From IMG/VR virus record IMGVR_UViG_3300040801_000976, positions 32,001 through 96,000 of that record: a stretch of DNA of 64,000 nucleotides, one strand, 5' to 3'. Made by a program: the position numbers and the translations under genes. Of the stretch, positions 33,419 through 63,000 are shown piece by piece. Below the pieces are notes generated by a model, which made no database searches, was not told the DNA's origin, and saw nothing but the letters and a program-made list of their open reading frames with translations. Source of the stretch: a virus. Numbering within the stretch: the first letter of the stretch is position 1; each line of letters begins with the position of its first letter.

Positions 33419-33420
33419 TA

Positions 33421-34071: not shown

Positions 34072-34093
34072 CAATTAAATTATTTACAAAACT

Positions 34094-34417: not shown

Positions 34418-34434
34418 AAATATTTTATAAGTGT

Positions 34435-34467
34435 CAAGGTTTAGGTAGTTTGACTACCTAAGCTTTG
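34435..34467 (+). other. 15-bp intergenic hairpin (terminator or mRNA stabiliser)
   Basis: CAAGGTTTAGGTAGT-ttg-ACTACCTAAGCTTTG; poor U tract. Confidence 0.6.
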
Positions 34468-34495
34468 GTTAATTTAATAAAGGAAACATTTAATT

Positions 34496-35707: not shown

Positions 35708-35708
35708 T

Positions 35709-36950: not shown

Positions 36951-36956
36951 CTTTAG

Positions 36957-36987
36957 AACCCCTCGCCGCCTGGTGCGGGGTTTTTTT
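36957..36987 (+). terminator. Rho-independent terminator
   Basis: AACCCCtCGCC-gcct-GGTGcGGGG followed by T7. Confidence 0.75.
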
Positions 36988-37033
36988 CTGTCTTGATAAT
37001 AATATTAGTGAAAAACTAACAAAATATACATAT

Positions 37034-48000: not shown

Positions 48001-48579
48001 AATGACCCAGAACTAATAGATCGTCGTCGGATAATGGACGAAGAAGTATTGTTCTCAGATGTCTTACAGGCAAATGTTGAAGATAGAGTAAATTTATTAA
48101 GACAGTATTTTTCAAATGTCATAAATAATTACTATAATATAACTAGTCAAGCCAACGCAATTTCCATGATAAGAGAGGTATTAGAAACAGTACCAGATAG
48201 TTATGTGGGAAAAGCCGAATTAACCAAAGATATTACTGATTATTACAAAAATACTATTGTAGAGTCTCTAAGACCTACTTTTGCGGAGAGAGCTAGTTCT
48301 TTGTTTGCAAACAACCAGGATTTTGTGGATAATGTGGATAAAGATATACAAAATTTAGTTATTAAAGAGGTAGTTCCTTTGATAGAATCTATGCAAAATG
48401 TAGATCAGTACCTGGAGTTTTTACAGCAAGGTACTCCATCAGATCCTACTAAACTAAATATGAATCACATAACTGCACAAAGTGAATTTTCAGATTTATT
48501 AAACGAAAGTTTGAGGATTCCAAACGAAGCAAAAGACAAGATACTGGAGGCTATAGATATAATGGTAGCATGTAAATAA
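39037..48579 (+). CDS. Giant virion/ejected protein with N-terminal membrane-like helices and an SF1 helicase-like domain
   Basis: GAQGTGKT 43258; YDE 43561; GDTAQ 43729; KGSEADY 44236; GRA 44374. Small-residue hydrophobic helices at about 40.0-40.8 kb. Confidence 0.75.
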   Translation: MSDNIDKNINEDLTQQENNIEVVEQEVKDDVKQVDETKELSFFDKVIQAKTKPTETSYLPGKEDFKKELEERAGRELEDEEVDEAYKHISDYYNELAREELENAQVFSSFDYMFEGAEDDVNFVDEGDYQPTLDVTVETNSGAKRILDTWTDPTRSVRKGSILSKKWIDHNGEVRELNTDLFDGMVGNKEFANDEGKNIIGYTYLPSDPYARGTGLVKAFYEGEEPDGEVVSRWDANGRFLNGNDLDFSTWKVPIASTFNFAVNLVDTALALSENVSVIATHGGVTDTEFYKDLRDVRNKLQSFNVSKSDWDQQKMFTVNNMVDLGINVGLQLLTARGLATAFGKILGASAKSVKKLSAMQQTLQQTTDPVKKKALRSSIDKLTATIQKAGKGSQRSTLFMLGAMAAKDASQEAKHAGFTDLESAYIYAASLGGMMWVNQLSNLGFERVGLNRASKITNNISKRIFNENTAAKVVKNPKSLKGLVSKYSDDLIKKYKEATSKTGYASHMLSEATEEEAELLMQEVVNHTANLYSALGYREEDRPKFKTVFDEGYWGEFMTESVMSVLGGAMGGAMARGLFIPKSELNKIKESELPVTGKEADAFKRVAYMSTRTQEGAQWEDMMMTKMKDKREKGLFGREDISTLWDKELGRYKRMTELTEEESEKYFSQAETAYRASMAQYQYYKLVFANESGKFEDIVKNNPNFAHLTESQQLQDATMDKIQRKSEILNSADLGTMEIDTLITKLSDTKNKLKKDEDGKVDDAKYQEELTEVSGATKLSVKDVEELVEINQFQKDVSSGAILENAFIDLQLTSENYRDVFSPETFRMLIESDSEAQDSYQESKLLLKELQDKMSESFDKVSEEGGLTDEQKSILLSGKAVLNPDTKERLLEVVRNTGVPLVERKKAAAMHVLNSMKTNGLLQNEEKYYGQQLNFLANLEKTVNTDPSALPQTIEGMLDKIPPDYEVYPFTQNEEVEAVKLAYANKTLKKIATAKSESELSDILYDEKDVTAANYAADYATPDFPFAGTSLEGEPLMFNESPNAAPIYDAVGFSEDAKEKAQLLDAINNTQSVENADENRPDALFDFDDSNPNKIKYLTSSLEEKYLSLTGGEENPRTFANLSGAKKLADKLRMRIKQLHFLVENVPALLTIQQINEEQFGELRDDLTYFTKHLNKIVDTKAIRENDAYKSQYLLNLVQQQVSLIKLLEKTERLTKLAENSSVDLQKAYFGDAVSYASDSIESVSAVFLRDGGQAVIQSNPALEGIEDLTIGLNYEDTDQINVKKLFDSLYEIRRKLQKARVDNPKFVDELVTHLSDKKGTDKSLINTILLTLSPSDYIFSRMRSVYDEAIKAADSVEKLEALQLPTISQLRLAEEAVTASTTSFLYYANILRGSKTKMLPIAVFSGAQGTGKTQVVGKDAAKYAQEVLYKLEQDKASNKLPKILFASNSESQAKNLRVSAEKGDVVSGSLEGKKDVTQEDLWNLFVGSDLSVKDIADKLTDIGAIFYDEIADVEFDASTAGVKKGFDNPKEAFVLNAILAKLSQVNDYRKSLKQEALVLIGLGDTAQGGYMEGSPSPRNPDGKEQLTGRVFSVTDPTTSVYKGSVELKHPFRYRVGELIKAPKEILEKLDPRMRLDSKEMQPVTFNYNFEEGTFTGVKKSNTWNDIINDEDLAQSIRTKLGAPNSGGNFTILVVTGKHSYDGVVDSNSALGKLLKEYEGDERILLRGFYNVKGSEADYVLVNMPKDHFIHSKEEVESPDFASPEQLTNRLRIMASVIGRAHTFTNIAVTGDYPIHSNKSTTTIIPVNETNEFKRAWSEMLSGAILSNYDVIPESVIPNIEVGKESDKSGFDTSVTDEEGIAGVSDPYTSSATESTEYANSVARELGIEELTEDNVIAARELAKELEDSSTGTDKDNAGSLKVLLNNIFSVIKNENEGEVISFDDSDPIGNNSSFQNMSDKKIMQEIEKQEGKILFFGQLGQEVTQQKSLESKRNYSSHLYDNVPSAENFKPEFYSALGLGPSGTSGMRDYKYHVVSYEFATQNRVQAFNHVIVAENKNGEKFIIGTLGKRANYDPNGDIAKWMDAREEKLKLITEAYANDEEVNVDEVLTPSERVSFSEMRNDFMLPDSGRRGSKFNKQNRFFIYNEVPNGANIIDGVTVGNTDSGNSVILNLAKQIDEVRAELPNIDKLSAGEFVKSKLDDADTVNRIDSFKEKGKFIPVKDIVSTDTKQRINPFEIINGNMFYSIGGYDILGIKLRRGTVYFAKSTKAWVPVLGLNTTDNTLILDNESLKPGANYDAEFTKISNSLRNLRVDKNFQKKFSDSTFSERVASLMGYKTTIFSEISNKNNLKKELRRISTENTTNTFFGNSRLTLKTAIKLWNKTGAPYSISKPYVIMRGENAGKSMIFYSFDRSKNLLDMSEDAIMSEYNAMLDNMKNNPTAMTSNRNNLGYILLDSKPTTIQELNELYLGVSNKGITDKFNKVVIRGNAESRLISLLAHLHIAINRPTSTSKVYQLLEDVDDNINKDAVYSWVKSKGDSQLKDISTVLRSIFQDENLGKIAMTNTDEALNNFIEDIKKYKDNRQMLDSIYDSYYSVNATQELLDRYGINKNNMTDLLITGGEGSVGKIVLNKHGVPAVYGTESTVIKYIPSSLVNSLSQGEKSSITPSLDLLKMFTLIHSTSLTEDSKNNIFEQLDEIMPNIDGLGKGLMVSPLAVDNKNPISRAITSTKQPLSEMLTTNVKQIKEPSIVFDVHTELDSISTPRKQFRVAEEKSSENKNLSETTYEDRIKSSDLRELSRIQKEVNKDNSLSSDEKLNISLKIKERVKSLRGEGSSVFDFRKMSLVEFVGDTVTPEVKVVLEQFDKLRPVIKNKEELDNIWVQGLITTLNNQLNSQISKYISNIQQSSGEMVQLSDIQVVEAAKTIVENNESIPKLDIEGFDVSSLELKWDTNQDNMGNRLAMLLSWSVAEGDEKAKLRDMLLTNPNDPELIDRRRIMDEEVLFSDVLQANVEDRVNLLRQYFSNVINNYYNITSQANAISMIREVLETVPDSYVGKAELTKDITDYYKNTIVESLRPTFAERASSLFANNQDFVDNVDKDIQNLVIKEVVPLIESMQNVDQYLEFLQQGTPSDPTKLNMNHITAQSEFSDLLNESLRIPNEAKDKILEAIDIMVACK

Positions 48580-48614
48580 TCTAGGATTAACATATTAAAA
48601 AAAATAAGAGAAAG

Positions 48615-51600
48615 ATGAAAAGAAAGATCAGTTGTGTTCCAACACTTTCGTCTATTTCTCAAAGAATGGTTAATAGCATTAAAAAAGGAAAAGGTATGGC
48701 TCCTAGTGAGTTATACCTTTTTGTTGTTAAAGATGTTATGCCAACTATTCTAGGAGAACAAGATGTCCGTAAAGAATTAGATAATATTGCCAAAGGTGAG
48801 TTTAACAGTAACTTGGGTGAGTTGCTCATGGGAATTGGTATGTCTATAAACCAGATAGCCAAACTTAGTAATGATAAGTCGCAGACTGTAAGTACTACGG
48901 ATATGATTTCTATCTGGAGAGATACATCAACCAAACTATTAGCCAACTTAGAACCAACTCCGGGTAGTGGTGTATCTAATATCAGTTTAGACGAAAACAC
49001 TACTCAAGAATTAACAAGCGACGATGAAGTAGAGGCACCCTCTAAAGTAGATACTGAAGATATTCCTGGGGAAATTTCTATAAGGAAACCTTTAGGGTCT
49101 AAAAATATAAACGAAGTGTTAGACCACTACCTGGTAGGAGATCTACGTAAAATACCTGATAGTTTACAATCATTCTTCCAAAGTATGATAAGTAAAGTTT
49201 GGTTAAGTGGAGATAATCAGACTAATTTCACTAGCGAGGCTATAAAAGCAAAATTGAGAGATAGTCTAAATGCTGTTGTACGGAATTATTATTCCGGCAA
49301 TGCGGTAGAAATGATCACATCTTCTATTGTTAGTCGTAAAAATTTTATCTCTACAGACAACCTAAATACCTTGATATTTAACGCAGAGTCAGCAATACCT
49401 TCCGATAGTAAACTTGTACATGAAGATGTAGATTTTGGTATTAAATATTATACTAACTCTAGTATATTAGGTACCGATAATATGCCTATGTTACTTGTAG
49501 TAGGTGAGGATCCTACTATGATGTTGGAACAATTCCTGACAAACGAAGAATTATTTGGTGAAAGAGCTGGTAATAATACTGTTATACCAGAATCGCTACA
49601 AGATGGTATAGATAGAAAATATAGTTCGATAGATAGAGAAACAGTTCAAGATAATTACTACATACCAGAGGTTAGAAATACTTATTTCGCACAGATTATT
49701 AACAACGAGTTAGATACTTTTATTAGGTCTTACGCACCAATGTTAGATAGTACCTATAAAGAAATATTTAGAACTTCGTTTGGTGATATACAATCTTTTG
49801 GTAGTAGTATGGCAAACAAACTTACAAAAATCAACATTTCTACCACACCTTTATTATATAAAGGTAGAGAAGCTAAGGATGTTAAATCTTCCCTAGGGTC
49901 ATTAAAGTCAGAATTATCTAAGTCCTCTAATTATTACGGAACACTAGCTAACTCTTCTTTACTATCAGAACTGGATACTAACGGTAATAAAATGATTTCA
50001 GTTAGGTTAGATAATAAAGAATACAGCGGTGTTATGTTGGATCTAGGACCTAAAAATCTTATCGTAGTCAATGACGGAAACTCCTGGTTAGTACCTATAT
50101 CTAATGTTGATGGAGATGTAAGTATGGTACAAGCTCAGGAATTATTTAGGGATAGTAGTAACATTGATATGTTCTATGAAGCAGCTGTCATATCCGCTGT
50201 AGATTTTTTAAATAGAAATGCCACGGATATTGAAGGATTACGAAATAATACTACAGAAGCTAAATTCGATAAAAGTACATTTTTCAATATTATCAAAAAT
50301 ACCAACACACCTCTAACAGAAGATGTGGATAATATTAATCTATTTTCAAATGAGGGAGGGAGAAAGTTTTTACAAGAGTCTGACTTAGAAATAGCTTCTG
50401 AAGTATTTCAATTTTTACCTGGTAATATAGCTGACGCGTCTAGGTACCTGGCTAGAATAGCATCTGATACAAGCTCGGTGTACAAAGATATAGCTAGGTC
50501 ATTATACTATAGATTTTTTAAAAAAGGTAAATACTTAGTAACTTCTATAAACCCAGAAACCGGTAGACTGGAGACCACAGAACAAATGTCTATGTATGAA
50601 AGATATCATAGATTTAATGATACAGTGGCGCGAAATTCATTAATCTCGCTAATGGTTCAGTTAAGATCCTCGTCGTTAGATAATAAAGCAATGGTTCAAG
50701 ATAACGAATTCATCGTTACAAATGTACAAAAAGGAACCACATTACAATCACTTATCTCCGAAATAGAAAATTCAAATACAGAATATTTTGCAGGTAAACG
50801 TGTAACACCAGACAAGGTATATGAAAACTTTACTGTAAAGGAATTAAGAGGTAATGAGTATGCTATAGAGTTTTATAGATTTAGTAGTAAATCTTCTCCA
50901 GATATTAAATTTTATATCAAAGACTTGGGTACCAATAACGACGGTAGAGCTAAAGGAAATAAATTTGAGGTTGTTGAAAAAGATGACTCAAGTTCACTGA
51001 ACCTTGAAAATATCGGTATATTATCGGGGTTTATGGGTTTACCAGCATTTTTATCTAACAAAAACTTCTACAACCAACTATATGATGACTCCGTTACCGG
51101 AAATGATGTAAGTAATTTCTTCGCTAATGTAATAGCACTAAAATTAGCAAACGGGAATAAATTGTTAGGTAATAAAAATTATACAAGTTCTGGTGCTTCA
51201 AAACTAGCCCTAGTAAGATCAGAAGGTGACATCAAACATACTTTCGCCAACAACATGTATGGTTATACTAATTTATTAGATACTACCATAGAGAAAGTCC
51301 TAGGTAACTCCAAAAGAGCCTATATAATGAGTCCTGAGGGTCATAAATTGTCCGTATCCATAATTACTAACAAAGCTAAGTCGAAGCAGGAGTTGGTGGA
51401 CCAGGTAAAGGATAATAAACTGTCTGAGTCAAATTTATATCGACATAGCGAGTTTGCTACTGGTGATATGAGGTTAACCAATAACGGTGTTACTAAAAAC
51501 GGTATTCGTGTAGGTGTTGACGGAAAAGGTAACGCAAAGCTGGATAGTTTAGAACACGTTATCTACTTGATGGAAAACGCATACTTGGCTCATGCAGAAA

Positions 51601-54600
51601 AACGTAATTTTTTAGAGTATCTATCCCAAGCGGGTACAATGTCAGATAGAACAACTGTGAATTTAGATGGTGTATCGTTTGAAAGTATGCAAGCATTGCC
51701 GGTAAAAGAAGGTAAGTTAGATGAGGAATTACTGAGGAAGAAATTTTTTGAAGTACAACGAAATTCACAAAAAGGAATAAATGAGTCATTGTTAAACGGA
51801 TGGAATGGATTTATTCGGAAAATTAAATCCGGTGAAATTGTAATGAATTCTGGTAATATAAAGCTATTACCTAACTCATTTACATCCATAAGTTCTTTAT
51901 ACAACACATTAGAAAAGGTTAAATTTGATCGTAATGAAGTACTAAAAAAATCTGGTTTAACAGACAAATCTTTTATTGACGATTCTAAAAAAATAGCTAA
52001 TATAAGATATAGTATTATAATGATGGATAATGTAATTTCTTCGCAGGGCGATGGACTACGATCTTTATTTCTAGATACTTATCTAAATACATTTAAACAG
52101 TATCTAAAAGACGTAGAGTATAAAATAAGTCCAAAAGCAGTTAGTATATTAGCTAATAGATTTCCATCAGCACTAAGTTCATCCAATGGATTTGAACACA
52201 ATAGGGTTATTGCGCAAGAAATACTTACAAGATCTTTCTTTTATCAAGATACTATAGCAGAACAAAATCTTATTAGTATACTCAGTGGTAATGTATTTCA
52301 ATATAAATCAAAAATACCTAGTGTATTTGAAAAACTTAACGCTAAGAATTTTAAAAGCGATATAGATAAATTACGATGGTTAGGGGAGCAAAAAGGTTAT
52401 GAAAATAAATCTATAGTCGAATCGACGTTCGCTGAATTAGAGAAGTTAGGTTCAGAAGGTAATAGATTAGGCTTCATAAAATCAATATTAGACTCTAATT
52501 TATCTGATAAGCAAAAGCTTTCTTTATTATATTTCGACGATCTATATACACAAATAACTCCAATGTACGTCGACCGTGTTAAACGTAACCAAGGTTCTGG
52601 TACTAGCTTTCAAAACTACGTTTTTGCTGCAGATAATTCTTCGGGATTTTTAATAGATAAAACTAGTAAAGAAATATTGGTAAAAGATCCAGAAACAGTA
52701 GTAAAATTATTGGGTAGTGGTTCGTTGTCGCAGGATATTTATGATGCTGTTCAAATGGCACACCCACTATTTTTTTACAAACATAACATGTCTTTAGGAG
52801 ATAAATTCTCTAACTTTAGATCTAGGAGCATTATTAAAGATGTCAATGCTTCTAATTTTGAAGATACATCGGAGTACTTGTTACAGAAAAAAGCTACTTT
52901 TCCTATGTTTAATTGGGAATTTATTTTTAGAGGTACACCTGAACATAATAACTTATTCTCATTAATGAATTCTCGTATTAAACTGGATATAGACGGATTG
53001 TTTTTGGATGAAAACCCATTATTGCCATTTCCAAACTTTGGTACAACTATTTCAGAAGAAGTACTACTTAATCACGGTGAGTATTTAGGAGAATTACTTG
53101 TAGATGGAAATAAAACTACAGCATCAGAACTATTATACTTACACAACAATAATGAAATAGATTTAAGTACTTTAGATATAAAGTCGAATAAGGTATATAA
53201 GACAGGCTTTTATACATTACAAGATATTTATAACTACTATGGTGGTGCGCAAGGTGATTTGGATGCTTATAACTCAGCTGATAATAAAACTGCTTTTATA
53301 GAAGAATTTCCTTTTGGTTGGACGTGGTTTAAAATAGGTGAAATAATTACTAATTACCGAGGTGTAGAAAATAATTATCCTATAAGAAATAGTTACATTT
53401 CTAAATTAGGATTTACATCTCAATCTAAAACTGGTAGTAGAAATATAAATGAGGAAACTATTCTATCGGATAAATTGTCTAAATATGATGAAGTAGAATA
53501 CGCGGAAATACCAAATAGATTTTCTGGTCCTGTTCTTGACGCAGAGCATGAGCCGGACACGACCGCTGAACTTAGTATGTCAGAAGAAGCACAAAACAAT
53601 ATGGTTTCAATGATAACTCAGGTTATGTCAGCTTCTATTGCACAAGGAGAATCGTTTAATGAGGTGGAGGCTATGTTTGGTGCACTAGGTACATTAAGTG
53701 ATCTTCAGTTAAATATAATAAATGAAAAACTATCTGATTATGAAGCATCATCATCTTCGCTAAATAAACTTTCTGACTCAGTGAGACGCTATGCTTTGGA
53801 GTTAGCTCAAGAAACCATGACTACTAGAAAAGATCCTGGTTCAACGTCTGCTTTCTTAGGATTAGGCACCGAAAGATTAGATAAGATTTCATTTGATTTA
53901 AAACAAATTTTACCACTAGTGCGACAATCTTTAAATGCACATTTAAATAGTCAGACTGTTAGGTTTAAAATGAAGGGTGGTCAATACATTGTCTCTCCTT
54001 CCCACGATCAGATTAAAACTTATAGCTTTGGTAAGTCCACAAATCTGTTCAGAAGTTCTATGAACTCTGGTAATAACGATGTAAACTCTATGATAGTTGA
54101 TGCAGTTAAAACAGATACATTACCAAACGGATGGGAATTAAACACAGTAACAAGTTTAGATCAGTTCGATAGATACCATACTAATACAGACACAGTGTTT
54201 ATTCGAGAAGATAAAGAATCTGTTTCCGACCTAGTACCTGTAAAAGTATCGGAACTATTAAAAGACAAATCAAATTTAATATCTCTAATAGAAAATGGTT
54301 TAATATCATCTGCCTGGGTAAACCCAGACCCGGGTAATACAGTTTCTGCTAAAGCACGTTCTATTGAAGGTAATACACTTTCGTGGTTAAATTATTTTAA
54401 AGATGGTAAAAATATATATAACACTGATGAGTATTATAGTTATTACTTAGCAGGTAAAGCACCTTTATATTTATCTAATCTAAAAGAAAACACTAAAAAT
54501 AATGCGGAATATTTATCTAAAGCTAGAAAGTTCTTTAGTGACGAAACAGAGGGTTCCGGTGTTCCGAAATTATTGTGGGCAAGGTATTATTATAATTCTT

Positions 54601-57600
54601 TAAATAAAAATAATACATTATCCTTATCTCCATTATTACCCGAAAGTAGTATAAATAAAGCTTATGAATCTTTTGATATAAATAACGAGGAACAGTTTTT
54701 AAAATTTTTAAATTATATAAAAAGACAAAAATCTGACCCAAGATTTTTTACAAACCAGTTTAAATCACAACTTCAATCACAACTTGAAAACGGAAACTGG
54801 CGTGCTAAAGAAGCAGAATTCTATATGCCTCCTATGCATCAGTCCGCTTTTTTAATAGATTACGGGGATTCAATACAAGATATAATTGGTACTCAAGAAC
54901 AACCAGATGTAGAAAGGGTCCGTGATAATTTATCTGAAGAAGAAATTAACATAATTACTAATAGATTTAATTCCTCTGAAGCACAATCCATAAAAGATAA
55001 ATTGAAAAATACTACTTTTTTACGGTTAAAGGAGGAACAGAACCAGCATATGTTAGATTATTTCTTAGCTAAAATTAATAACTTAGAGAAATTATCGCGT
55101 AAAAGTAGTCTTAAAGAATCGGAGAAAGAAAGTTTAATGCGTAGGTCCCCGTTATTTTTATTACAAAATTCAGTGCGTAATAAAGATACTTTAAGTAAAG
55201 CTGTAGATAAATTACTAACCAAAGAAGTGGTGCTGGCTAATAGTTCTAATACAAAAGACCTAATTACACTAAAACAAGAGTTAATAAACAATAGAGGTAG
55301 TGCTTCGGAAATACTAGATGATGCCTTATTATCTTTTAAGGAAAAATGGTCCGCTACTCTAGCTAATAACTTTGAAAAAAGTTTGACTTTTATAACTGCA
55401 CGAATTCCTGCACAAGGTAAACAATCTTATACTGTAGGAAAAATAAAGAATTTTATTTATTCGACCAGAAATGCGATATATGGTCCTCTAGAGATGTTAA
55501 CCGTAACTGGCGCAGACTATGATATAGACAAACAAAATAATATGGCATGGGATGTAGACGACCACGGTACCGTTATTGATTGGACACCTTATCTTGATAA
55601 AAGTGGTAAGATTAATGCTGTTAAGATTAATAATGTAATTAATAAATCTACTAGTGAATTTAGGGAACAATTAGAACAATTAGGTTTAACAGATATAGAT
55701 AATAGAGTATCTGCTTTTAAAAAGAATAAAATAAACTTTATATCGAGAGCAGTACAAAACTTTGTGGTAGATAGATTAATGAAAGGTGCTTTAGACCCAG
55801 TAAATGGTATCGAAGCAGCTACAGCAGTATCTATGCGTAAGTTAGGTGTTATAAAAGAAGTGATGGATAGTTTTAATTTTGAAAATTTAGGTATAGATAA
55901 ATATAAATTAACTACTACTGATGGTAAATATAATTTTTCTGAAAGTTTAGTTAAAGCTATTCAAAAAAGACAACATGCCTTACCGTTCTCCCCCAGCACT
56001 AAAATGATTTACGAAAGAGTAAATATGGATGGTAAAACCGGCGTCGGTATTTATGCTTCAGCACTGAAAGCTTATTTAGCAACCTATTATGCTTGGTTAA
56101 AGAACAATAGTATCACTAATTATAATTCTACTTTGACTAATAGGTACACTATGGATGATATATTAAACGCTAGCGAGAAAGAATTACAGTCAATACATGA
56201 TGCTATCGTTGACGAGGATACTGATAGAACTTGGATAACTTTTACCAATAAATTTGCTCCTAGTATAAATAGGGATGCTAAGAAAATACCAAAAGGTACA
56301 AAAACTGATTTATCTTTGGATAATAATGCTTTACATTTTATATGGAAAGATCCTGAAACTGGGTTATTTGAGATAAAATCAGATATTTATTCTTTAGCTA
56401 ATACTGGTAAACACATGCCTTCTGTAGGAAAAACATTATCTAAGATAAAAACTCAGAGAGCTAAAGAAGTTTATAAAAGAATTGGTTTTGCAGACGAACA
56501 AGAGCAGGTAGCTTTATTATCCAAATATATGGATGATTTAAATTTGTTAGATAATTACAATACAGAATCACAGGCTTGGGAAGACTTATCCGAATTATTA
56601 TCAGCGGCCACAGATAATGCTAAAGAACTTATACTAGGCAAAATTGGATCTAATGCCACAACCAGTTCGATTATATCTGTTATGGTTGTTTTAGGAATAG
56701 ATTTACAAAACGCTTTACTATTAATTAATGACACTAAAATAAAAGATATTGTTAGTTTAGTAGAACAAAAATCTAGATTGTTAGGAGTCAAAGACTCTTA
56801 TATACCAGCTTTATCTAAACTATTAGAGAATAAGATAGATAAATATAAGCCAAACGAAGAGTTGTCTGACGAAAAAATAGAACAGTTAGTGAGGAAATCT
56901 GCTACCGCAAATACACCTGAAAAAGAAATTAACGCGCGTATTGAGAAGCAAAAAGTTCTTCGTAAACACTATAATCCTTATGAACAATTTATGTTCTTTA
57001 CCAAAGCAGCAGATGAATTAACTAAACTAAGTAGAATACTATCAATAAACCAAGGCTTACCAAATAGTGAATTTGAAGTATTTAACTATATCAGAAATGT
57101 AGAAGATGCTATAGGAGCACCAATTGAAGAGTTTGTGGGAGATTCTAATATGTCAGCAGCAGATATTGATGCTAAAAGATTAGAGATAATAAAAAAATAC
57201 GACGTTACAAAAACTGTATTTAATATTCCTTATATTTTATTAAAAAATGAACATTATTTTTCGTATATCAAAAGTTTATTAAAAAGCAATAATATATTAA
57301 AAAATCTATCTTATACAGTAAGATTAGTATATAATGACTTAAATACCAACTTACCTGTAGACAAAACTTCTGTGACAAAAAGCGAGTTTACTAACTATAT
57401 AAATACATTAACTGATTTTGTTATCTCTAAATTTTACAAATCTCCATCAGTAAATAGTATTGTAAATTTAGGTAAATATGGTTCTTATGACTTATCCAAG
57501 GTTTCTTCTGGCGATACTGATATAAAAGGTAGACAAGAATTTATAAAAGAATTTCCTGATATATTAAATAATATTAAAAAATCTTCCGAAGAACTAAATA

Positions 57601-60032
57601 ATAATACATTATTATCTCAAATAAGTCGTAAAGAAACGGAGACAGATATTATAACTAAAGAATCTTTTGATATACTAGGTGGTATAAACACCGAAACTAC
57701 CACAGTAGGTGATATAGCTAACTTCAAAATATTGTTAAAAAATATTCAAAAAACACATCCAGATTTATACAATGCTTTATTTAATTATAGCTTGATTATA
57801 AACAAAGGTGGTTTAGGTAAATCTTCTTTAACATCTTTATTTGATTTGAAAATATTTGAAGACTTTGAAAACTTTTTAAATACTATTGAAAAGGAAAAAT
57901 TAATAGAAGAAGAATTTCATAGTTTATCTAAAGATGTAAAGGGTTTATTAATTCCTATGTTATTGCAACAATTCCCGACCAAGACCGGTGTAAAAATATT
58001 AGAAAAAACCTTAGATAAATCAGGCCTGACGGATGAAGAATTAGAGCAAGAATTTTCAGAGTCTCAAGAAAGTGAAGAGAATCTACATGAATTCATGGAA
58101 GAGGATTTTTCTAATATTCACAGGGATTATAGAGAGGAGATAGCTAAAAACTACGATGTTAGTAGTATATTATCTGCAAAAATCAGTGGTAATATACACG
58201 CTCCGGATATTTTTAAAAGTAGAACTAACAATTTGGTGTATGCCTATAATGAGAAAGTGAATGATTATGTACCTATAACCAAAACAATATCTAACAGGGT
58301 TATACCTATAGATATAACCACAGATACTGATGTATTAAATAATCTTTCTACAATAGGATATGATTGGGGGTGGGAAATAGAGATGCCTAACGGAACAAAA
58401 GCTAGATTACTAAATCTATCGGACAGGGCCAAAGGTACTTATAATGTACTACAACCCGACGGTACTGTGATACAGATGAAAGATATTGATATTATGACAT
58501 TTAATCCAAATGTTAGATTATATTACGAAGCTATAAAAATCCTACCAGGTAAATTTGAAAAAAAATATCCTTATAATTTTTTCAAAGATAAAAATACTGG
58601 TGATATAACTGTAAATGATGGTGATAGTGCTATACCTATTAAAATCGAAGTAAAAGACACAGATGTAATTAGAAGTTCAGATAAAACAGTATTAACATCA
58701 TACTTGGTAGACCTTATTAATAGTAAGGTAAAAAATAAACCTAAAGAGAATAAAAAATTTGATGATATATTAAAGTTATTTGATGATCTAGTAAATGAAG
58801 TAGAAGTAGCTATACAGCTGTCGTCTATGCCAGATAATACTGATGTGTTTGAAGCTCAACAAGCCATAAAATCAAATCCTAATCCCGCTATCAATCATGT
58901 AAGATCTGTTTTATATAATCTACCTCTGGTACTAAGATATTCATTATTAAGAAAACCTGAATCACAAAAAATAGATTATATTAAAAAGATAGTAGGTTCT
59001 AATATGAATATTACTTCTTGGCCTAAAGTACGAGGTTCTAAAGTAAAAGATATGAGTGTTCCTAAAATATTTGAGTCGGATATAGAATTACTTACCAAGG
59101 AAGAGTTAGCTTCCCAATTACAGATTATGGATTATTTACCTATATTAAAGTGGGTAGGTATTTCAGAGAATGTTTATAGAAAAGCTATAAATAAAAAAGT
59201 TTTGGTAGATGGTAATAAAGTATATACAGATCCAACTATTATAAAAAATATAGACGAAGATGTAAAATTTGATAAAGCTATACCTATTCCAGAAGTAATC
59301 AGACAAAACTCACTAAATAATATTAGTCCTGTAGTTATAGAACGATTGGGTGCTTTTGTTAGAAGTAGATTTACTGGTGTTTCTGTTAAAGTGTTGGGAA
59401 CATCTGATATAGTGGCACAGTATGGTGAAAAATACAATCACGCTGCTTTTGTGAAAGATGGTACTATTGTGTTAAATAGAGACAAAGCCACATTAGATAG
59501 TGCTATGCACGAGATGGGCCACCTATATCTTGCAGAGATTAAGAATTCAGATAAAGAATTATATATCAATTTAATGAGTTTAGCTTCTAGACACGAAGAC
59601 TATAATTTAGTAAAAAAGTTATACCCTGAACTAAGTCCGACAGATATTGCTGAAGAAGTGTTTGTTGGTTTATTATCTAAAAATAAACGATCCAAACTTG
59701 AGAATGCGGTAGTAAATGAGATGGCAAATACATTGTCTGATGAAAATGGGAATCTTTGGGGTAAAGTAATAAACTTTTTTAGAAATTTATTCAAGGGATT
59801 TGTTGGTAATTCAACTATAAATAACGACTTTATCGACTTAGACACTAATTTGACAGAAGCGTTAAACACTATCAGTGATGATATATTATATGGGAAAAAC
59901 TCTAAACTATATAACTTTACATCTAGTTTTAAACAAGATATTAAAAAATCTAATCCTTCATATGAAATGAGTACATCGGAAGCACGCGCTTATTTAGAAG
60001 AAAGAGGTTTCATAAGATGGATTTGTAATTAA
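48615..60032 (+). CDS. Virion-packaged single-chain two-barrel RNA polymerase with C-terminal zincin domain
   Basis: ARIPAQ (55398) and catalytic GADYDIDK (DYDID 55515-55529), as in crAss-like virion RNAPs; SAATDNAK motif; HEMGH at 59508-59522 with downstream EE. Confidence 0.9.
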   Translation: MKRKISCVPTLSSISQRMVNSIKKGKGMAPSELYLFVVKDVMPTILGEQDVRKELDNIAKGEFNSNLGELLMGIGMSINQIAKLSNDKSQTVSTTDMISIWRDTSTKLLANLEPTPGSGVSNISLDENTTQELTSDDEVEAPSKVDTEDIPGEISIRKPLGSKNINEVLDHYLVGDLRKIPDSLQSFFQSMISKVWLSGDNQTNFTSEAIKAKLRDSLNAVVRNYYSGNAVEMITSSIVSRKNFISTDNLNTLIFNAESAIPSDSKLVHEDVDFGIKYYTNSSILGTDNMPMLLVVGEDPTMMLEQFLTNEELFGERAGNNTVIPESLQDGIDRKYSSIDRETVQDNYYIPEVRNTYFAQIINNELDTFIRSYAPMLDSTYKEIFRTSFGDIQSFGSSMANKLTKINISTTPLLYKGREAKDVKSSLGSLKSELSKSSNYYGTLANSSLLSELDTNGNKMISVRLDNKEYSGVMLDLGPKNLIVVNDGNSWLVPISNVDGDVSMVQAQELFRDSSNIDMFYEAAVISAVDFLNRNATDIEGLRNNTTEAKFDKSTFFNIIKNTNTPLTEDVDNINLFSNEGGRKFLQESDLEIASEVFQFLPGNIADASRYLARIASDTSSVYKDIARSLYYRFFKKGKYLVTSINPETGRLETTEQMSMYERYHRFNDTVARNSLISLMVQLRSSSLDNKAMVQDNEFIVTNVQKGTTLQSLISEIENSNTEYFAGKRVTPDKVYENFTVKELRGNEYAIEFYRFSSKSSPDIKFYIKDLGTNNDGRAKGNKFEVVEKDDSSSLNLENIGILSGFMGLPAFLSNKNFYNQLYDDSVTGNDVSNFFANVIALKLANGNKLLGNKNYTSSGASKLALVRSEGDIKHTFANNMYGYTNLLDTTIEKVLGNSKRAYIMSPEGHKLSVSIITNKAKSKQELVDQVKDNKLSESNLYRHSEFATGDMRLTNNGVTKNGIRVGVDGKGNAKLDSLEHVIYLMENAYLAHAEKRNFLEYLSQAGTMSDRTTVNLDGVSFESMQALPVKEGKLDEELLRKKFFEVQRNSQKGINESLLNGWNGFIRKIKSGEIVMNSGNIKLLPNSFTSISSLYNTLEKVKFDRNEVLKKSGLTDKSFIDDSKKIANIRYSIIMMDNVISSQGDGLRSLFLDTYLNTFKQYLKDVEYKISPKAVSILANRFPSALSSSNGFEHNRVIAQEILTRSFFYQDTIAEQNLISILSGNVFQYKSKIPSVFEKLNAKNFKSDIDKLRWLGEQKGYENKSIVESTFAELEKLGSEGNRLGFIKSILDSNLSDKQKLSLLYFDDLYTQITPMYVDRVKRNQGSGTSFQNYVFAADNSSGFLIDKTSKEILVKDPETVVKLLGSGSLSQDIYDAVQMAHPLFFYKHNMSLGDKFSNFRSRSIIKDVNASNFEDTSEYLLQKKATFPMFNWEFIFRGTPEHNNLFSLMNSRIKLDIDGLFLDENPLLPFPNFGTTISEEVLLNHGEYLGELLVDGNKTTASELLYLHNNNEIDLSTLDIKSNKVYKTGFYTLQDIYNYYGGAQGDLDAYNSADNKTAFIEEFPFGWTWFKIGEIITNYRGVENNYPIRNSYISKLGFTSQSKTGSRNINEETILSDKLSKYDEVEYAEIPNRFSGPVLDAEHEPDTTAELSMSEEAQNNMVSMITQVMSASIAQGESFNEVEAMFGALGTLSDLQLNIINEKLSDYEASSSSLNKLSDSVRRYALELAQETMTTRKDPGSTSAFLGLGTERLDKISFDLKQILPLVRQSLNAHLNSQTVRFKMKGGQYIVSPSHDQIKTYSFGKSTNLFRSSMNSGNNDVNSMIVDAVKTDTLPNGWELNTVTSLDQFDRYHTNTDTVFIREDKESVSDLVPVKVSELLKDKSNLISLIENGLISSAWVNPDPGNTVSAKARSIEGNTLSWLNYFKDGKNIYNTDEYYSYYLAGKAPLYLSNLKENTKNNAEYLSKARKFFSDETEGSGVPKLLWARYYYNSLNKNNTLSLSPLLPESSINKAYESFDINNEEQFLKFLNYIKRQKSDPRFFTNQFKSQLQSQLENGNWRAKEAEFYMPPMHQSAFLIDYGDSIQDIIGTQEQPDVERVRDNLSEEEINIITNRFNSSEAQSIKDKLKNTTFLRLKEEQNQHMLDYFLAKINNLEKLSRKSSLKESEKESLMRRSPLFLLQNSVRNKDTLSKAVDKLLTKEVVLANSSNTKDLITLKQELINNRGSASEILDDALLSFKEKWSATLANNFEKSLTFITARIPAQGKQSYTVGKIKNFIYSTRNAIYGPLEMLTVTGADYDIDKQNNMAWDVDDHGTVIDWTPYLDKSGKINAVKINNVINKSTSEFREQLEQLGLTDIDNRVSAFKKNKINFISRAVQNFVVDRLMKGALDPVNGIEAATAVSMRKLGVIKEVMDSFNFENLGIDKYKLTTTDGKYNFSESLVKAIQKRQHALPFSPSTKMIYERVNMDGKTGVGIYASALKAYLATYYAWLKNNSITNYNSTLTNRYTMDDILNASEKELQSIHDAIVDEDTDRTWITFTNKFAPSINRDAKKIPKGTKTDLSLDNNALHFIWKDPETGLFEIKSDIYSLANTGKHMPSVGKTLSKIKTQRAKEVYKRIGFADEQEQVALLSKYMDDLNLLDNYNTESQAWEDLSELLSAATDNAKELILGKIGSNATTSSIISVMVVLGIDLQNALLLINDTKIKDIVSLVEQKSRLLGVKDSYIPALSKLLENKIDKYKPNEELSDEKIEQLVRKSATANTPEKEINARIEKQKVLRKHYNPYEQFMFFTKAADELTKLSRILSINQGLPNSEFEVFNYIRNVEDAIGAPIEEFVGDSNMSAADIDAKRLEIIKKYDVTKTVFNIPYILLKNEHYFSYIKSLLKSNNILKNLSYTVRLVYNDLNTNLPVDKTSVTKSEFTNYINTLTDFVISKFYKSPSVNSIVNLGKYGSYDLSKVSSGDTDIKGRQEFIKEFPDILNNIKKSSEELNNNTLLSQISRKETETDIITKESFDILGGINTETTTVGDIANFKILLKNIQKTHPDLYNALFNYSLIINKGGLGKSSLTSLFDLKIFEDFENFLNTIEKEKLIEEEFHSLSKDVKGLLIPMLLQQFPTKTGVKILEKTLDKSGLTDEELEQEFSESQESEENLHEFMEEDFSNIHRDYREEIAKNYDVSSILSAKISGNIHAPDIFKSRTNNLVYAYNEKVNDYVPITKTISNRVIPIDITTDTDVLNNLSTIGYDWGWEIEMPNGTKARLLNLSDRAKGTYNVLQPDGTVIQMKDIDIMTFNPNVRLYYEAIKILPGKFEKKYPYNFFKDKNTGDITVNDGDSAIPIKIEVKDTDVIRSSDKTVLTSYLVDLINSKVKNKPKENKKFDDILKLFDDLVNEVEVAIQLSSMPDNTDVFEAQQAIKSNPNPAINHVRSVLYNLPLVLRYSLLRKPESQKIDYIKKIVGSNMNITSWPKVRGSKVKDMSVPKIFESDIELLTKEELASQLQIMDYLPILKWVGISENVYRKAINKKVLVDGNKVYTDPTIIKNIDEDVKFDKAIPIPEVIRQNSLNNISPVVIERLGAFVRSRFTGVSVKVLGTSDIVAQYGEKYNHAAFVKDGTIVLNRDKATLDSAMHEMGHLYLAEIKNSDKELYINLMSLASRHEDYNLVKKLYPELSPTDIAEEVFVGLLSKNKRSKLENAVVNEMANTLSDENGNLWGKVINFFRNLFKGFVGNSTINNDFIDLDTNLTEALNTISDDILYGKNSKLYNFTSSFKQDIKKSNPSYEMSTSEARAYLEERGFIRWICN

Positions 60033-60045
60033 TAATTATTATTTC

Positions 60046-60079
60046 GAGAGTACGGTGTAAATTACCGTACTCTTATTTT
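60046..60079 (+). terminator. Hairpin/possible terminator between the RNAP gene and the next giant gene
   Basis: GAGAGTACGGTG-taaat-TACCGTACTCTT followed by ATTTT. Confidence 0.6.
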
Positions 60080-60092
60080 AAACTGAATAAAG

Positions 60093-63000
60093 ATGGCAAA
60101 AGATTGTAAATTTGTATATTTTGATGGTGACGGTAAGCCTTCTGTAGATTACTATAATTATATCAATAAACATGGTCATGTTAATGCAGAAACTAATTAT
60201 ATTAATAAAACTTTAGCATTAGCAACTACTAAGTTTCAAAAAGATATTGATTTGAGAAAAGTACTTGAAGATGAGGCTAATTCTCCTAAATCAGATGTTA
60301 GTTACAAAGCTGTAACAACAGTTATATCCGAACACACACAGGATATTCCTGATGAAGTAGTTACCTTTATGGCTAAACAGCAGCGTACACAAGATATTAT
60401 AAATGAATATAAAGAACAAGGTAATAAAATTGATTGGAAGAAAGCCAATAATCAAGCTACTAAGTTTTTTGAAAAAGAAGATAACGCAGAAATATCTAGT
60501 CTATATAAATCCGAAGTCAGATCTAAATGGTCCAATCAAGCTAAACAGGGAGATTTAGTCCATGAATCTATACAATATGCTTTGGAAGAAAGGGAGGATA
60601 GCGAAGACAAAAGTTTAGGTAAAATACCGGAGTTTGTAGCTAAATCCAGGAGAAAGATGGATGATCGTTACGGTGAAGGAAATCATTTGAGTTTTAACAC
60701 TATTTCTCTAGTATCTGATATTGTAAAGGAAATCACCAATTTAGAAAATAAATACAAGACTACTTTTCAGGTGTTGCCTGAAGCAGAGCTAAAAAGTAAG
60801 AAGTTACAGATAAATAATCAAAAGTTGTCTGGTAAAGTAGATATTTTACTATATTCTCCACAGTTAAATAAAGCTGTAGTGATGGATATTAAAACCAAAT
60901 CTTCGGACAAAGTACATAATTTTGATAATGTTAATCTACCTAAGATGACAGGTCCGTTCTCATCTTTAGTGGGTAATTCCGAAGAGATGGCAAACGTACA
61001 GACCACTATTTATTCTGATATTTTAGAGAATGATTATGGTGTAAATGTATTAGAAACAAAAACTTATGTGGCTACAGGACAACTAAAACAAGATGGTAAT
61101 GAAGTTGGTAATCGTGAGTGGAGATTCTCGTATTTAGATCCCAAAACCACAAAGTTTGTTGAAGGTCAAAGATACTCTGGTTTGACATACGATACTTATG
61201 ATAAAAGTGATAGTGATTTAGAAAAAGATCTAAGTATAGATAAAGCTATAGATTTTTTATTTAAAGGAAAATTCGCCACAACTATAGATAGAAAAGATCA
61301 GTTTGTCGAAAGTCAGATGTCTACTATACAAAAATCAGAAGAGTCTGGTAAATTTTATTGGAGGAATACGTTTGATAGAAGTTTTGAATATGCCGTTACT
61401 ACTGATGAATTAGAGAAAAAAATAAAAAAGGCGTATGATAAATTTTCTGAGAGTAAAAAGACGGCATCGCAGGATTTAATTTATTTGTTTAAACACGGAG
61501 ACGCTCCTAAAGATTCAATATGGAATAACGAATTTTATCGAAGAAAAGCTAATAAACTATTCGAGGGTATAAATCCTGAAACACATATTTTACTAAATAG
61601 TTCTCAAGTAAAAAGTCTAAAGGGTATAGGTAAAGATATACTTATAGCTCAAGACAAGAATACAAAAGAACTTACATTAATGTCTATATCTCCTACATGG
61701 GATATGCAACAATATTTTCACGAAGAGGGTTCGGACGAAGCTAGAACTACCATCCTAGGTCCTTATATGACAGATACCACAGTATCAAAACTATATAATG
61801 AAGGTATAATACCTAAAGCAACAACACACTCTATGAATATGCTGAGATTAGCTTTAGTTGCTGCTGACCTTAGAAAAAACAATCCTTCTTCTATGGGTAA
61901 AGTAAAAAAACTAGTATCTCTAACCGTGATGGGGGAGAGTCATAACTTCAGGACCTCTTCTATGGCAGAACAAATAGCCCTACTTCGTGAATTACATTCT
62001 GTTATTAGCAAAAATAACGGTGATATACCAAAACCTCTGGATGATATTGTGATGGATAAAGATTTACGAGATCCATCTAACTACAATAGTAAATATTTCG
62101 ACGATTTTGTTTCTAGATTTATTCATGACCAAGATGTATTTGGTGGTATTAAGATTAGAAAAGAAACACAACAAGCCATAAATAATCTTAGGAAAACACT
62201 AGAAGAAGCTGGTAAAGACGAGGATAGTTTGTACGGACAATTTCGAGTAGAACAGAGTTTAATGAATTATGGTAAACAAGTATATACAGAAGTAGCTGGT
62301 ATAAAGAATGTATCTCTTACTGAAAAAAAAGCAATTATAGCTGATTCCCGTGTACAAGAAGCTATGAATGCATATTTAGCATATAAGAATCTAAAAGTTA
62401 ATACAGACCCTTTGTTTAAAGGAAAATTTCTACATATGCTTAATTCTGCTAAAACAGCTAACGATCCTTATGCTGATATGTTAGATAAATTAGTAGCTCA
62501 ACATGAACAACGTGTCCGAGAAGATATAATGGAATTTATGTCTGAGCATGATCGTTTGGTAAAAAACCTTGTCAAAAAAGAGGGTATAAATGCTGCACAA
62601 CAAATGGTTTCATTAGATTTTTATGAAAAAATATTTAAACCATTAATGCGAGATGAATACCGATTCGATGAGAATAATACGGAAGATTGGATGAGGTTCA
62701 AAGATCCTAAAGATAAAAATAATGATCTAAACGATGACCAGCGAGCTTATATTGAATTCTTTAATAAACATATTAAAGATGCCTCAAGGGCTATGTTACC
62801 TAAGAAATTATTCACGAACATGTTTCCTGATCCAGAAAGTGGTATAACAAACGATTCTTGGAAAGAAGGTTATTTACCCATTATACCCGGTACTGCTACC
62901 GGCGAGATGCAGAAAACCATGAATATGGAAAATGGACAGGATGTTTTAGAGGTTATAAAAAGATCATGGAGTAAAGCTTTTAAACCAACGGATGATGGCA

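Follow-up and report, generated by a model that had tools for sequence, protein, structure and literature searches.

Paired terminal cysteines in the giant cargo proteins of crAss-like phages and a candidate head-to-tail disulfide chain

Crassviruses, which outnumber all other phages in the human gut, pack and inject about 0.7–1 MDa of protein, among it the polymerase with which infection begins. The cargo proteins gp47, gp50 and gp49 of crAss001 were detected in virions by mass spectrometry and were not resolved in the structure of the particle, whose tail and portal vertex were reported to contain several intermolecular disulfides (PMC10172136). The cargo of phi14:2 includes gp67, gp66 and gp65, is present in virions and is delivered into the host; the preprint that describes it mentions fused polyprotein forms, gives DFDID as the active site of gp66, reports a zincin-like protease domain for gp65 orthologues and proposes proteolytic activation of the polymerase (10.1101/2020.03.07.982082). 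In the accessible parts of these two sources (PMC10172136 and 10.1101/2020.03.07.982082), the word ‘cysteine’ occurs 0 times and no covalent cargo link is mentioned. Our literature searches turned up no account of covalently chained crassvirus cargo or of cysteines at its termini.

Cysteine content has been discussed for other ejected proteins. The original prediction took the virion RNA polymerase of N4 to be cysteine-free, and this is in print for both N4 gp50 and DEV gp71, whose lack of cysteine has been put down to their route across the periplasm (PMC11445570). A covalent link between ejection proteins is known from cyanopodophage A4, for which cryo-EM of the pre-ejectosome revealed a Cys1715–Cys5 disulfide between gp27 and gp26 (PMC12002296). 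The original prediction, which knew of no description of such a mechanism, was thus too strong on this point. In the genome of this phage (Anabaena phage A-4L; KF356198), gp27 has 1,717 amino acids and a sole cysteine, C1715, third from its end, gp26 has 1,114 amino acids and a sole cysteine, C5, and the neighbouring ejection protein gp29 is cysteine-free.

Three giant proteins with four cysteines

The window analysed here is a stretch of 64,000 nt of a virus contig from a very divergent crAss-like phage, the genome of which is about 80% complete. Three giant ORFs on its plus strand form the putative chain. P1, the first member (positions 39037–48579; 3,180 amino acids, 356 kDa), has a sole cysteine, C3179, as its penultimate residue (TGT codon at 48571–48573, plus strand). 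P2, the middle member (48615–60032; 3,805 amino acids, 430 kDa), has C7 (TGT, 48633–48635, plus strand) and the penultimate C3804 (TGT, 60024–60026, plus strand) only. P3, the last member and part of the gp49 family, occupies 60093–64000 within the window and has C5 as its sole cysteine (TGT, 60105–60107, plus strand); on the whole contig it ends at window coordinate 64667, past the window, with a full length of 1,524 amino acids and 175 kDa. The cysteine positions first noted (48571, 48633, 60024 and 60105) all hold, as does the single cysteine in the 1,302 visible residues of P3, to which the whole contig adds none up to residue 1,524. Together, the proteins contain 4 cysteines in 8,509 residues, all at adjoining termini (C3179/C7 and C3804/C5). 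P1 has no N-terminal cysteine, as originally stated, and P3 has no C-terminal one. Their combined mass of 961 kDa agrees with the predicted size of ‘near-megadalton or larger’ for the three proteins.

At the background frequency of the same genome (0.752%; 218 cysteines among the 28,978 residues of 86 further ORFs), 64 cysteines would be expected in the three proteins, compared with the 4 found. If cysteines were placed uniformly, all four would land in the four adjoining terminal windows with a probability of 4.9e-10. Cysteine occurs in the first 11 residues of 3 of the 86 control ORFs and in the last 9 residues of 3 of 86, and none of the 81 other junctions between same-strand neighbours has it on both sides; the first ATG served as the start codon. 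Interior cysteine is also sparse in the pooled relatives (0.144% versus the genome background of 0.752%). Upstream of P1, six plus-strand ORFs (31803–39019; 346, 192, 216, 403, 413 and 661 amino acids, 2,231 in total) contain 0 cysteines and are candidates for further cargo or ejection proteins outside the cysteine-linked chain. One of them (33421–34071) matches PHROG endolysin and internal-virion-protein families.

P2 contains D2301-x-D2303-x-D2305 within a G-A-D-Y-D-I-D-K motif (55515–55529, plus strand). The aspartates are nearly invariant in the P2-family alignment A2 and, by a match to the DFDID of phi14:2 gp66 at motif level only, are a candidate for the catalytic motif of a crAss-type virion RNA polymerase. 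A zincin-type HExxH (H3632-E3633-x-x-H3636; 59508–59522, plus strand), also nearly invariant in A2, lies about 170 residues before C3804. The polymerase label originally given to P2 is backed by the DxDxD-type motif and by transitive BLAST links (15 ORFs are common to the matches of crAss001 gp50 and of P2), whereas direct searches came back empty: hmmsearch with alignment A2 found no match among the crAss001 proteins, and sequence and profile searches of P2 found none in the PDB. An AlphaFold model of P2 residues 2180–3100 (mean pLDDT 52, pTM 0.37) was too poor for a fold search. P3 is homologous to crAss001 gp49 by profile comparison: alignment A3 (window P3 and 7 relatives) matched alignment A4 (11 sequences including gp49) in hhalign with a probability of 100% and an E value of 1.9e-48 over 1,167 columns. 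A match to the PD-(D/E)XK nuclease family PF12705 was found in 3 of 8 P3 family members. P1 shares no BLAST matches with gp47 and does not match it directly, and is its positional counterpart only.

Direct comparisons of the window proteins with crAss001 gp47, gp49 and gp50 (blastp, phmmer) gave no match. P1 and P2 fall in no PHROG or Pfam family, and a renewed Pfam search with a stretch of P1 and the zincin end of P2 gave no match either. Single-sequence searches with the C-terminal 400 residues of P1 and of P2 recruited no related loci, neither P2 nor P3 had a tblastn match in the phage collection, and a homologous-protein search returned only P1 itself for P1 and one relative for P3.

The pattern is kept in all close relatives in which the junctions can be seen. 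Five of five database homologues of P2 (29–37% identity) have cysteine at position 4–5 and as the last or penultimate residue. In loci L086–L092, three of which (L086, L089 and L092) have P1 homologues, the pair is present at 6 of 6 visible P1/P2 junctions and at 6 of 6 visible P2/P3 junctions. All 12 rows of A2 keep C3804 and all 8 rows of A3 keep P3 C5, and in both alignments the terminal cysteine is the conserved residue amid otherwise diverged termini.

Cultured crAss001 has the same pattern. Its gp47 contains a single cysteine, C2339, at the third residue from its end; gp50 contains C5, C1334 and C2404, the last being the ninth residue from the end; and gp49 contains C5 alone. The terminal cysteines of cr128_1, cr1_1 and bajarodcaudo virus follow the pattern of crAss001. 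As gp47 is encoded on the opposite strand from gp50 and gp49, a nucleotide or translational-coupling signal does not account for the pattern.

Cysteine pairs at gene junctions and their absence from gene fusions

We surveyed 159 related crAss-like loci, recruited with an alignment query, which yielded 406 junctions and, after near-identical ones were merged at 70% identity over 60 flanking residues, 205 dereplicated junctions. Junctions were built from plus-strand ORFs of at least 200 amino acids; a separate pass over the first 79 loci only used an 80% merging threshold. Both cysteines are present at 133 of the 164 close dereplicated junctions, neither at 24, only the N-terminal one at 4 and only the C-terminal one at 3. 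Among distant junctions, by comparison, 2 of 41 have both. Taken with the database homologues (5/5) and the alignments (A2, 12/12; A3, 8/8), the 133 of 164 junctions bear out conservation of the terminal cysteines in homologues, which the original prediction had set as one of its tests.

Chains are present in 147 of the 159 loci, and the pattern persists under three genetic codes. The junction cysteines are encoded by TGT (228) and TGC (38), and the use of both codons points to selection on the residue. Spacing varies (0–8 residues from the C terminus, 3–11 from the N terminus), and in some lineages the N-terminal cysteine lies as deep as position 11, indicating loose geometry. The residue before the C-terminal cysteine is N in 30, D in 22 and E in 15 of the 133 pairs. 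Each terminus has a single cysteine, with no conserved histidine or second cysteine beside it. In 16 of the 133 dereplicated pairs, each partner has one cysteine in its visible sequence (the upstream protein being complete in just 2, L017 and L090), so that only an intermolecular bond is possible there. The pairing is independent of gene adjacency: in L046 it is kept although the partner genes are 5.1 kb apart.

The ends of the chain behave differently from its junctions. All complete first proteins (7 of 7) lack an N-terminal cysteine, and among 84 complete last members only 5 show a C-terminal one. In at least 4 of these 5, a distant break (>120 nt) or a gene-call problem comes next, so that they are not true chain ends. 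The exceptions, with one cysteine of two, comprise 7 of the 164 close junctions, and L036 and L133 look like real exceptions to the pair rule. Among the 12 loci without a chain, six offer no gene junction that could be used and two are assemblies of low coverage in which frames are broken. In L041 and L098 all breaks lack a pair, L066 is a fusion, and L133 has a C-terminal cysteine with no N-terminal partner after a 193-nt gap.

Pairs appear where the cargo is split and are absent where it is fused. At the boundary between polymerase and zincin, L009, L004 and L015 have a split and a pair, and the window and L001 have a fusion and no pair. Between the zincin and gp49-like parts, the window has a split and a pair. 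These two parts are fused in L057 and L078, where the fusion site has no cysteine and the only cysteine of the downstream protein is the N-terminal one, which pairs with the polymerase protein, and in L066, which has no pair whatever. The gp47/gp50 boundary is split with a pair in crAss001 and fused in ORFs of more than 4,100 amino acids in L124, L126 and L134, each with a single C-terminal cysteine. Split positions vary between loci, and the pair is found at the split each time. That terminal cysteines would be lost at natural fusions, as originally proposed, is thus borne out in the window, L001, L057, L078, L066, L124, L126 and L134. Breaks without a pair mostly lie at conserved motifs and contain an intervening ORF, which encodes a LAGLIDADG homing endonuclease in 4 of 5 tested cases. 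On account of this position and these ORFs, such breaks are probably introns, repaired before translation.

A proposed covalent thread and its alternatives

We consider it probable, on the basis of the sequence patterns, the phage A4 precedent and the disulfides of crAss001 virions, that head-to-tail disulfides staple P1, P2 and P3 into one covalent pseudo-polyprotein of about 0.96 MDa. The three proteins would be the counterpart of the RNA-polymerase-associated cargo block, which in cultured crassviruses is packed into the capsid and delivered to the host. This cargo is purged of cysteine, as is often the case for ejected phage proteins, and the remaining four would be selected. Two intermolecular bonds, P1 C3179–P2 C7 and P2 C3804–P3 C5, would form in the assembled particle and impose a fixed order and a 1:1:1 stoichiometry. 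With links 0–2 residues from the C terminus and 3–7 from the N terminus, the product would be an essentially linear thread. The thread could keep the pieces together while they pass the tail partly unfolded, and the reducing cytoplasm would then separate them. For crassviruses, the disulfide bond itself is an inference, as are passage of the tail as a thread and reductive release.

Co-folding of P2 residues 3506–3805 with P3 residues 1–300, run with our own alignments, scored 0.43, compared with 0.00 for the best of 3 controls. The runs agree in ≥40% of contacts, with a partner pLDDT of ≥56. In the reference sets, 58 of the 80 solved complexes and 2 of the 110 mismatched pairs attain the mark used; at scores of ≤0.60, only 7 of those 80 solved complexes and both mismatches do. 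The co-folding check suggested with the original prediction therefore lends weak support at the P2/P3 ends through its score, but lists no contacts. A difficulty for the disulfide proposal is the site and route of thiol oxidation, given a reducing cytoplasm and the oxygen-free habitat of gut phages. The loose geometry in some lineages and the 7 close junctions with one cysteine of two also count against it. Thioredoxin and glutaredoxin families were not found in the phage’s own genome (about 80% complete). A search for the Erv1 family had no match there, but its control was likewise without a match in any genome, so that this negative carries no weight either way.

Some alternatives dispense with the disulfide. 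The facing cysteines could form a metal clasp (Zn, Fe or Cu), built from two thiolates and nearby side chains or from four thiolates of two junction copies; the Rad50 zinc hook is a model for such a four-thiolate bridge. A clasp would fit the conservation, the split/fusion rule and the chain ends, would require no oxidant in an anoxic habitat, and could draw on the acidic residues that are common just before the C-terminal cysteine. We nevertheless regard it as unlikely, given one cysteine per terminus with no conserved neighbouring histidine or second cysteine, the use of disulfides in crAss001 virions (PMC10172136), and the fact that the sole solved case with the signature, gp27–gp26 of phage A4, is a disulfide (PMC12002296). 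Free thiols with another role, such as thioester-type joining, a zincin cysteine switch, or portal or scaffold contact in packaging, are very unlikely. The HExxH motif about 170 residues before C3804 and the proteolytic activation of the polymerase proposed for phi14:2 (10.1101/2020.03.07.982082) speak for such a role, but P1, a 333-amino-acid piece of L009 and gp47, all zincin-less, also have terminal cysteines, for which reason a zincin switch was rejected as the general cause. P1 and P2 match no Pfam family and hence no intein- or ligase-like domain, cysteines at most 11 residues from the end leave no space for a domain between cysteine and terminus, and a role in one protein would not yield paired gain and loss across a junction. 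Split inteins and protein trans-splicing were rejected, with no Hint or intein domain in Pfam searches and the cysteines too near the termini for intein halves.

Other alternatives keep the disulfide but not the train, or dispose of the pattern altogether. P2 could be self-closed through C7–C3804, with P1 and P3 paired or as homodimers and no linear train. Sequence is blind to which thiol meets which, and the counts of N- and C-terminal cysteines balance here as well. Such a topology is nonetheless decidedly unlikely: the 16 of 133 pairs with single cysteines in their visible sequence allow only a cross-junction or homodimer bond, new pairs arise exactly at new splits, where both ends were neighbours in the unsplit protein, and the cross-junction bond is the one seen in phage A4 (PMC12002296). 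Homodimers, moreover, give no reason for the missing N-terminal cysteine of the first protein and C-terminal cysteine of the last. That the pattern reflects chance, gene calls with wrong starts or a nucleotide signal at gene boundaries is exceedingly improbable. Starts were set at the first ATG and TGT is the commoner cysteine codon in AT-rich genomes, but the window probability (P = 4.9e-10) and control junctions (0/81), the conservation of cysteine amid diverged termini, the occurrence of both codons, the variable spacing and the persistence of the pattern with partner genes on opposite strands or 5.1 kb apart (L046) all argue against it.

If a conserved covalent head-to-tail link exists, it would account for cargo order and stoichiometry and for the interchangeability of fused and split gene forms. 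The terminal cysteines also provide a simple sequence rule for spotting the members and ends of a cargo chain in uncultured phages. More tentatively, crassviruses and, independently, at least one cyanopodophage may use a redox-gated thread of 0.7–1 MDa, built from separate gene products joined by terminal disulfides, that exits the capsid through the tail as one partly unfolded chain of set order and that host thiol reductases then divide into polymerase, protease and nuclease, with gene fission tolerated only with a replacing cysteine pair.

Comparison with known systems

The window resembles the cargo blocks of crAss001 and phi14:2 in having giant genes beside the structural module. The crAss001 proteins are known virion proteins and those of this uncultured phage putative ones, and the three genes of the window are collinear on one strand, whereas gp47 of crAss001 is opposite to gp50 and gp49. 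With the Schitoviridae operon (N4 gp50, DEV gp71–gp73), the window shares a giant ejected virion RNA polymerase, a putative one here, and strong suppression of cysteine. In the Schitoviridae, depletion is complete and terminal cysteines are not described in the accessible text, whereas in the window the interior is depleted and the junction-facing cysteines are kept. With these four terminal cysteines, the window proteins do not belong to the fully cysteine-free ejected type of N4 gp50 and DEV gp71.

The likeness to phage A4 lies in the signature, as gp27 and gp26 are consecutive, large, capsid-internal ejection proteins with the same arrangement of cysteines as both window junctions. phmmer searches of gp26–gp29 against the window, crAss001 and all locus ORFs of ≥300 amino acids gave no match at E values up to 0.01, so that the precedent is an analogy. 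Phage A4 belongs to the Saffermanviridae, unlike the window phage, and its ejection proteins include no RNA polymerase. It has one link, whereas the crassvirus chain would have two to four, and the link is presented as stabilising a five-fold ring locally rather than as forming a thread; the accessible text reports no split/fusion rule or conservation (PMC12002296). The head-to-tail disulfide of ejection proteins is thus already known from phage A4, and the bond there suggests that the principle may extend past the crassvirus order.

Cysteines and identity of the giant proteins P1, P2 and P3

The original prediction held that the few cysteines of three adjoining giant proteins face one another across gene boundaries, and the DNA bears this out at all four codons. 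On the plus strand, P1 (39037–48579; 3180 aa, 356 kDa) has its cysteine codon at 48571, P2 (48615–60032; 3805 aa, 430 kDa) has codons at 48633 and 60024, and P3, which starts at 60093, has one at 60105. The window comprises bases 32001–96000 of one viral contig of 128,786 bases, from which the full length of P3 was read (1524 aa, 175 kDa), and the remainder of P3 past the window adds 0 further cysteines. DNA reading and tabulation thus give 4 cysteines in 8509 residues (961 kDa in total), where 64 are expected from the 0.752% cysteine of the 86 other ORFs in the genome. Under uniform placement, the probability that all four fall in the four adjoining terminal windows is 4.9e-10. Among the 86 control ORFs of the same genome, three have a cysteine within 11 residues of the N terminus and three within 9 of the C terminus; none of the 81 other same-strand junctions has both. 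The four-cysteine pattern is genuine and far beyond chance. Six consecutive ORFs directly upstream (31803–39019; 2231 aa) are cysteine-free; one of these, at 33421–34071, has matches to PHROGs of endolysins and internal virion proteins. A 107-aa ORF at 34094–34417 has one cysteine, C68.

No Pfam or PHROG family was matched by P1 or P2, and single-sequence queries of viral contigs and a phage collection found no relatives. P2 has five homologues in protein databases (29–37% identity). Nearly invariant in the P2 alignment are a G-A-D-Y-D-I-D-K stretch (D2301, D2303 and D2305) and, near the C terminus, an HExxH motif (H3632, E3633 and H3636; 59508–59522); in other lineages, this zincin-type domain occurs as its own gene or fused to a protein resembling gp49, a cargo protein of the cultured phage crAss001. 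The catalytic motif of a crAss-type virion polymerase is given as DFDID in the available part of the phi14:2 preprint (10.1101/2020.03.07.982082), and 15 ORFs are BLAST hits of both P2 and crAss001 gp50. From the aspartate motif and the shared hits, P2 is likely to be the virion RNA polymerase; we grade the label no higher because direct profile searches, PDB searches and a fold attempt yielded nothing. One P2 homologue (P0003) has an internal CxxC...CxxC at residues 2306–2374 that is missing from the others and may be an inserted zinc-binding element.

By hhalign, the P3 family matches the gp49 family, of which crAss001 gp49 is a member, with a probability of 100% (E 1.9e-48). A PD-(D/E)XK-like motif set lies in the N-terminal part of P3 (residues about 150–310), and the PD-(D/E)XK nuclease family PF12705 is matched by three of eight P3-family members (best E 1e-6); P3 itself falls below threshold. 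For P1, no link to crAss001 gp47 was detected, either directly or through common BLAST hits, and the stretch at 42934–44736 had no Pfam match at E up to 0.1.

Conservation of the junction pair across crAss-like phages

Conservation of the terminal cysteines in homologues, a check proposed with the original prediction, holds both in the window's own lineage and in wider crAss-like loci. All five database homologues of P2 have a cysteine at position 4–5 and at the last or penultimate residue; C3804 of P2 is retained in all 12 aligned sequences and C5 of P3 in all 8. Among seven metagenome loci of the same lineage (L086–L092), the pair occurs in 6/6 visible P1|P2 junctions and in 6/6 visible P2|P3 junctions.

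An alignment-based scan extended the comparison to more distantly related crAss-like phages, with 79 viral loci and 80 from metagenomes. The genetic code of each locus (table 11, TGA=W or TAG=Q) was chosen according to how much longer it made the ORFs; in many loci the giant ORFs are open only with TGA read as Trp (for example, L001) or TAG as Gln (for example, L016). A junction was defined as the boundary between successive plus-strand ORFs that are both ≥200 aa long, and a pair as a cysteine in the last 9 residues upstream together with one in the first 11 residues downstream. The 159 loci contain 406 junctions (205 after dereplication). Of the dereplicated close junctions, 133 of 164 have the pair, the remainder having neither cysteine (24), the N-terminal one alone (4) or the C-terminal one alone (3); the pair is found at 2 of 41 distant junctions. 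The N-terminal cysteine is mostly at position 3 (59) or 4 (42), and the C-terminal one occupies the last (51), second-to-last (46) or third-to-last (23) position, with codons TGT (228) and TGC (38). The chain is present in 147 of 159 loci, the other 12 being fragments for the most part, and the rule is valid under all three genetic codes. The interiors of chain members contain 0.144% cysteine, and those of 110 of the 249 members contain none.

Gene boundaries, chain ends and gene order

Gene boundaries shift relative to domains between lineages, and the cysteine pair moves with the boundary. In the window, polymerase and zincin are in one protein, P2. The same region is split once in L004 and L015 and forms three genes in L009 (3184 | 333 | 549 aa), with a pair at each boundary. 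In L057 and L078 the boundary precedes the zincin domain, which is fused to the gp49-like protein, and the sole cysteine of this fusion is N-terminal, facing that of the polymerase protein. In L066 a single ORF of 5540 aa or more covers the polymerase, zincin and gp49-like parts; it has neither a pair nor a C-terminal cysteine. In L124, L126 and L134, crAss001 gp47 and gp50 match, in order, the same ORFs, each longer than 4100 aa and with a single cysteine, at the C-terminal end. At three different junctions, then, the pair accompanies the split and is missing from the fusion, as had been anticipated for natural gene fusions.

Junctions without a pair are mostly chain ends, chain starts, or breaks at a conserved polymerase motif with an intervening ORF. 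An N-terminal cysteine is absent from all seven complete first proteins (those of the window, cr1_1, L017 and L153, crAss001 gp47, and its counterparts in cr128_1 and bajarodcaudo virus). A C-terminal cysteine occurs in 5 of 84 complete last members; in three of them (L018, L046 and L090) a gap of >120 nt comes next, and in L032 an overlapping 205-aa ORF does. At least four of the five are therefore not true chain ends, having a distant break or a gene-call problem downstream. The polymerase gene of relatives is broken at or beside DYDIDK-type and AATDNAK-type motifs, with no cysteine pair there, by interrupting stretches (L047 12340–13428, L062 12442–13140, L013 10988–11932 and L060 4424–5122). 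Because four of five intervening ORFs tested are LAGLIDADG homing endonucleases, these stretches are probably group I introns and the protein continuous.

The pattern is also independent of gene order. In crAss001, gp47 (2341 aa) has one cysteine, third from its end, gp50 has C5, C1334 and C2404, gp49 has only C5, and gp46 is cysteine-free; gp47 lies on the strand opposite gp50 and gp49, and the combined mass of these three is about 694 kDa. The layout and cysteine pattern are the same in cr128_1 and bajarodcaudo virus, and in cr1_1 a 4551-aa protein with a cysteine-bearing C-terminal tail precedes one of 2007 aa with C5. In L046 (6971–18470) an insertion places two chain members ~5.1 kb apart, and both facing ends retain their cysteines. 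A nucleotide or translational-coupling signal is ruled out, because the pattern persists across opposite strands and across this 5.1-kb separation.

Proposed disulfide linkage and comparison with known systems

We propose that the two cysteines of each pair would be joined head to tail by a disulfide once the particle is assembled, which would let separately synthesized pieces act as a single polyprotein. For 16 of the 133 dereplicated pairs only an intermolecular bond is possible, because each partner has a single cysteine in the visible sequence (the upstream protein being complete in 2 of the 16). Co-folding of the terminal regions, also suggested with the original prediction, was run on the last 300 residues of P2 and the first 300 of P3 with custom alignments. 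The score of 0.43 stands above the controls (0.00 for the best of three), at least 40% of contacts are shared between the runs, and the partner has a pLDDT of at least 56. Of 80 solved complexes used for calibration, 58 attained the mark, as did 2 of 110 mismatched pairs; with scores of ≤0.60, the range in which this model falls, it was attained by just 7 of the solved complexes and by both mismatches. The model weakly supports contact between the P2 and P3 ends.

A disulfide between the facing termini is the best-supported reading for crassviruses, one that we consider probable and that has a precedent in an unrelated phage, the cyanopodophage A4 (Anabaena phage A-4L). The sequence data are also compatible with facing cysteines joined by a metal clasp and with disulfides formed in another pairing topology, both of which we regard as improbable. 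For the disulfide between facing termini, we infer the bond in any crassvirus as well as the time and agent of its oxidation; passage of the cargo as one thread, freed by reduction, is plausible. Searches of the window's genome (roughly 80% complete) for thioredoxin and glutaredoxin genes found none. In cr128_1 and bajarodcaudo virus (L082 7290–7535 and L084 8444–8689), a small gene annotated as thioredoxin-family precedes the polymerase block by a few kb.

According to the available part of the crAss001 report (PMC10172136), gp45, gp46, gp47, gp49 and gp50 are detected in virions, the last four are assigned to the capsid cargo zone, cargo-zone proteins must partly unfold for tail passage, and several intermolecular disulfides occur in the tail and portal vertex; cysteine is not mentioned in that part. 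Cysteine suppression in the N4-like ejection operon is documented, with a periplasm argument, in the accessible text on DEV (PMC11445570). The literature searched contained no description of the terminal-cysteine pattern in crassviruses. In A4, as described in the part of the report available (PMC12002296), the C-terminal helix of the ejection protein gp27 is inserted into gp26 and held by a Cys1715–Cys5 disulfide; in the A4 genome these are the sole cysteines of gp27 (1717 aa, C1715) and gp26 (1114 aa, C5), proteins that have no detectable sequence similarity to those of crassviruses. A terminal disulfide between consecutive ejection proteins is therefore already known, seen once; what is new is the proposed chain of several links, which extends across the order, takes in the likely virion polymerase and obeys a split/fusion rule.
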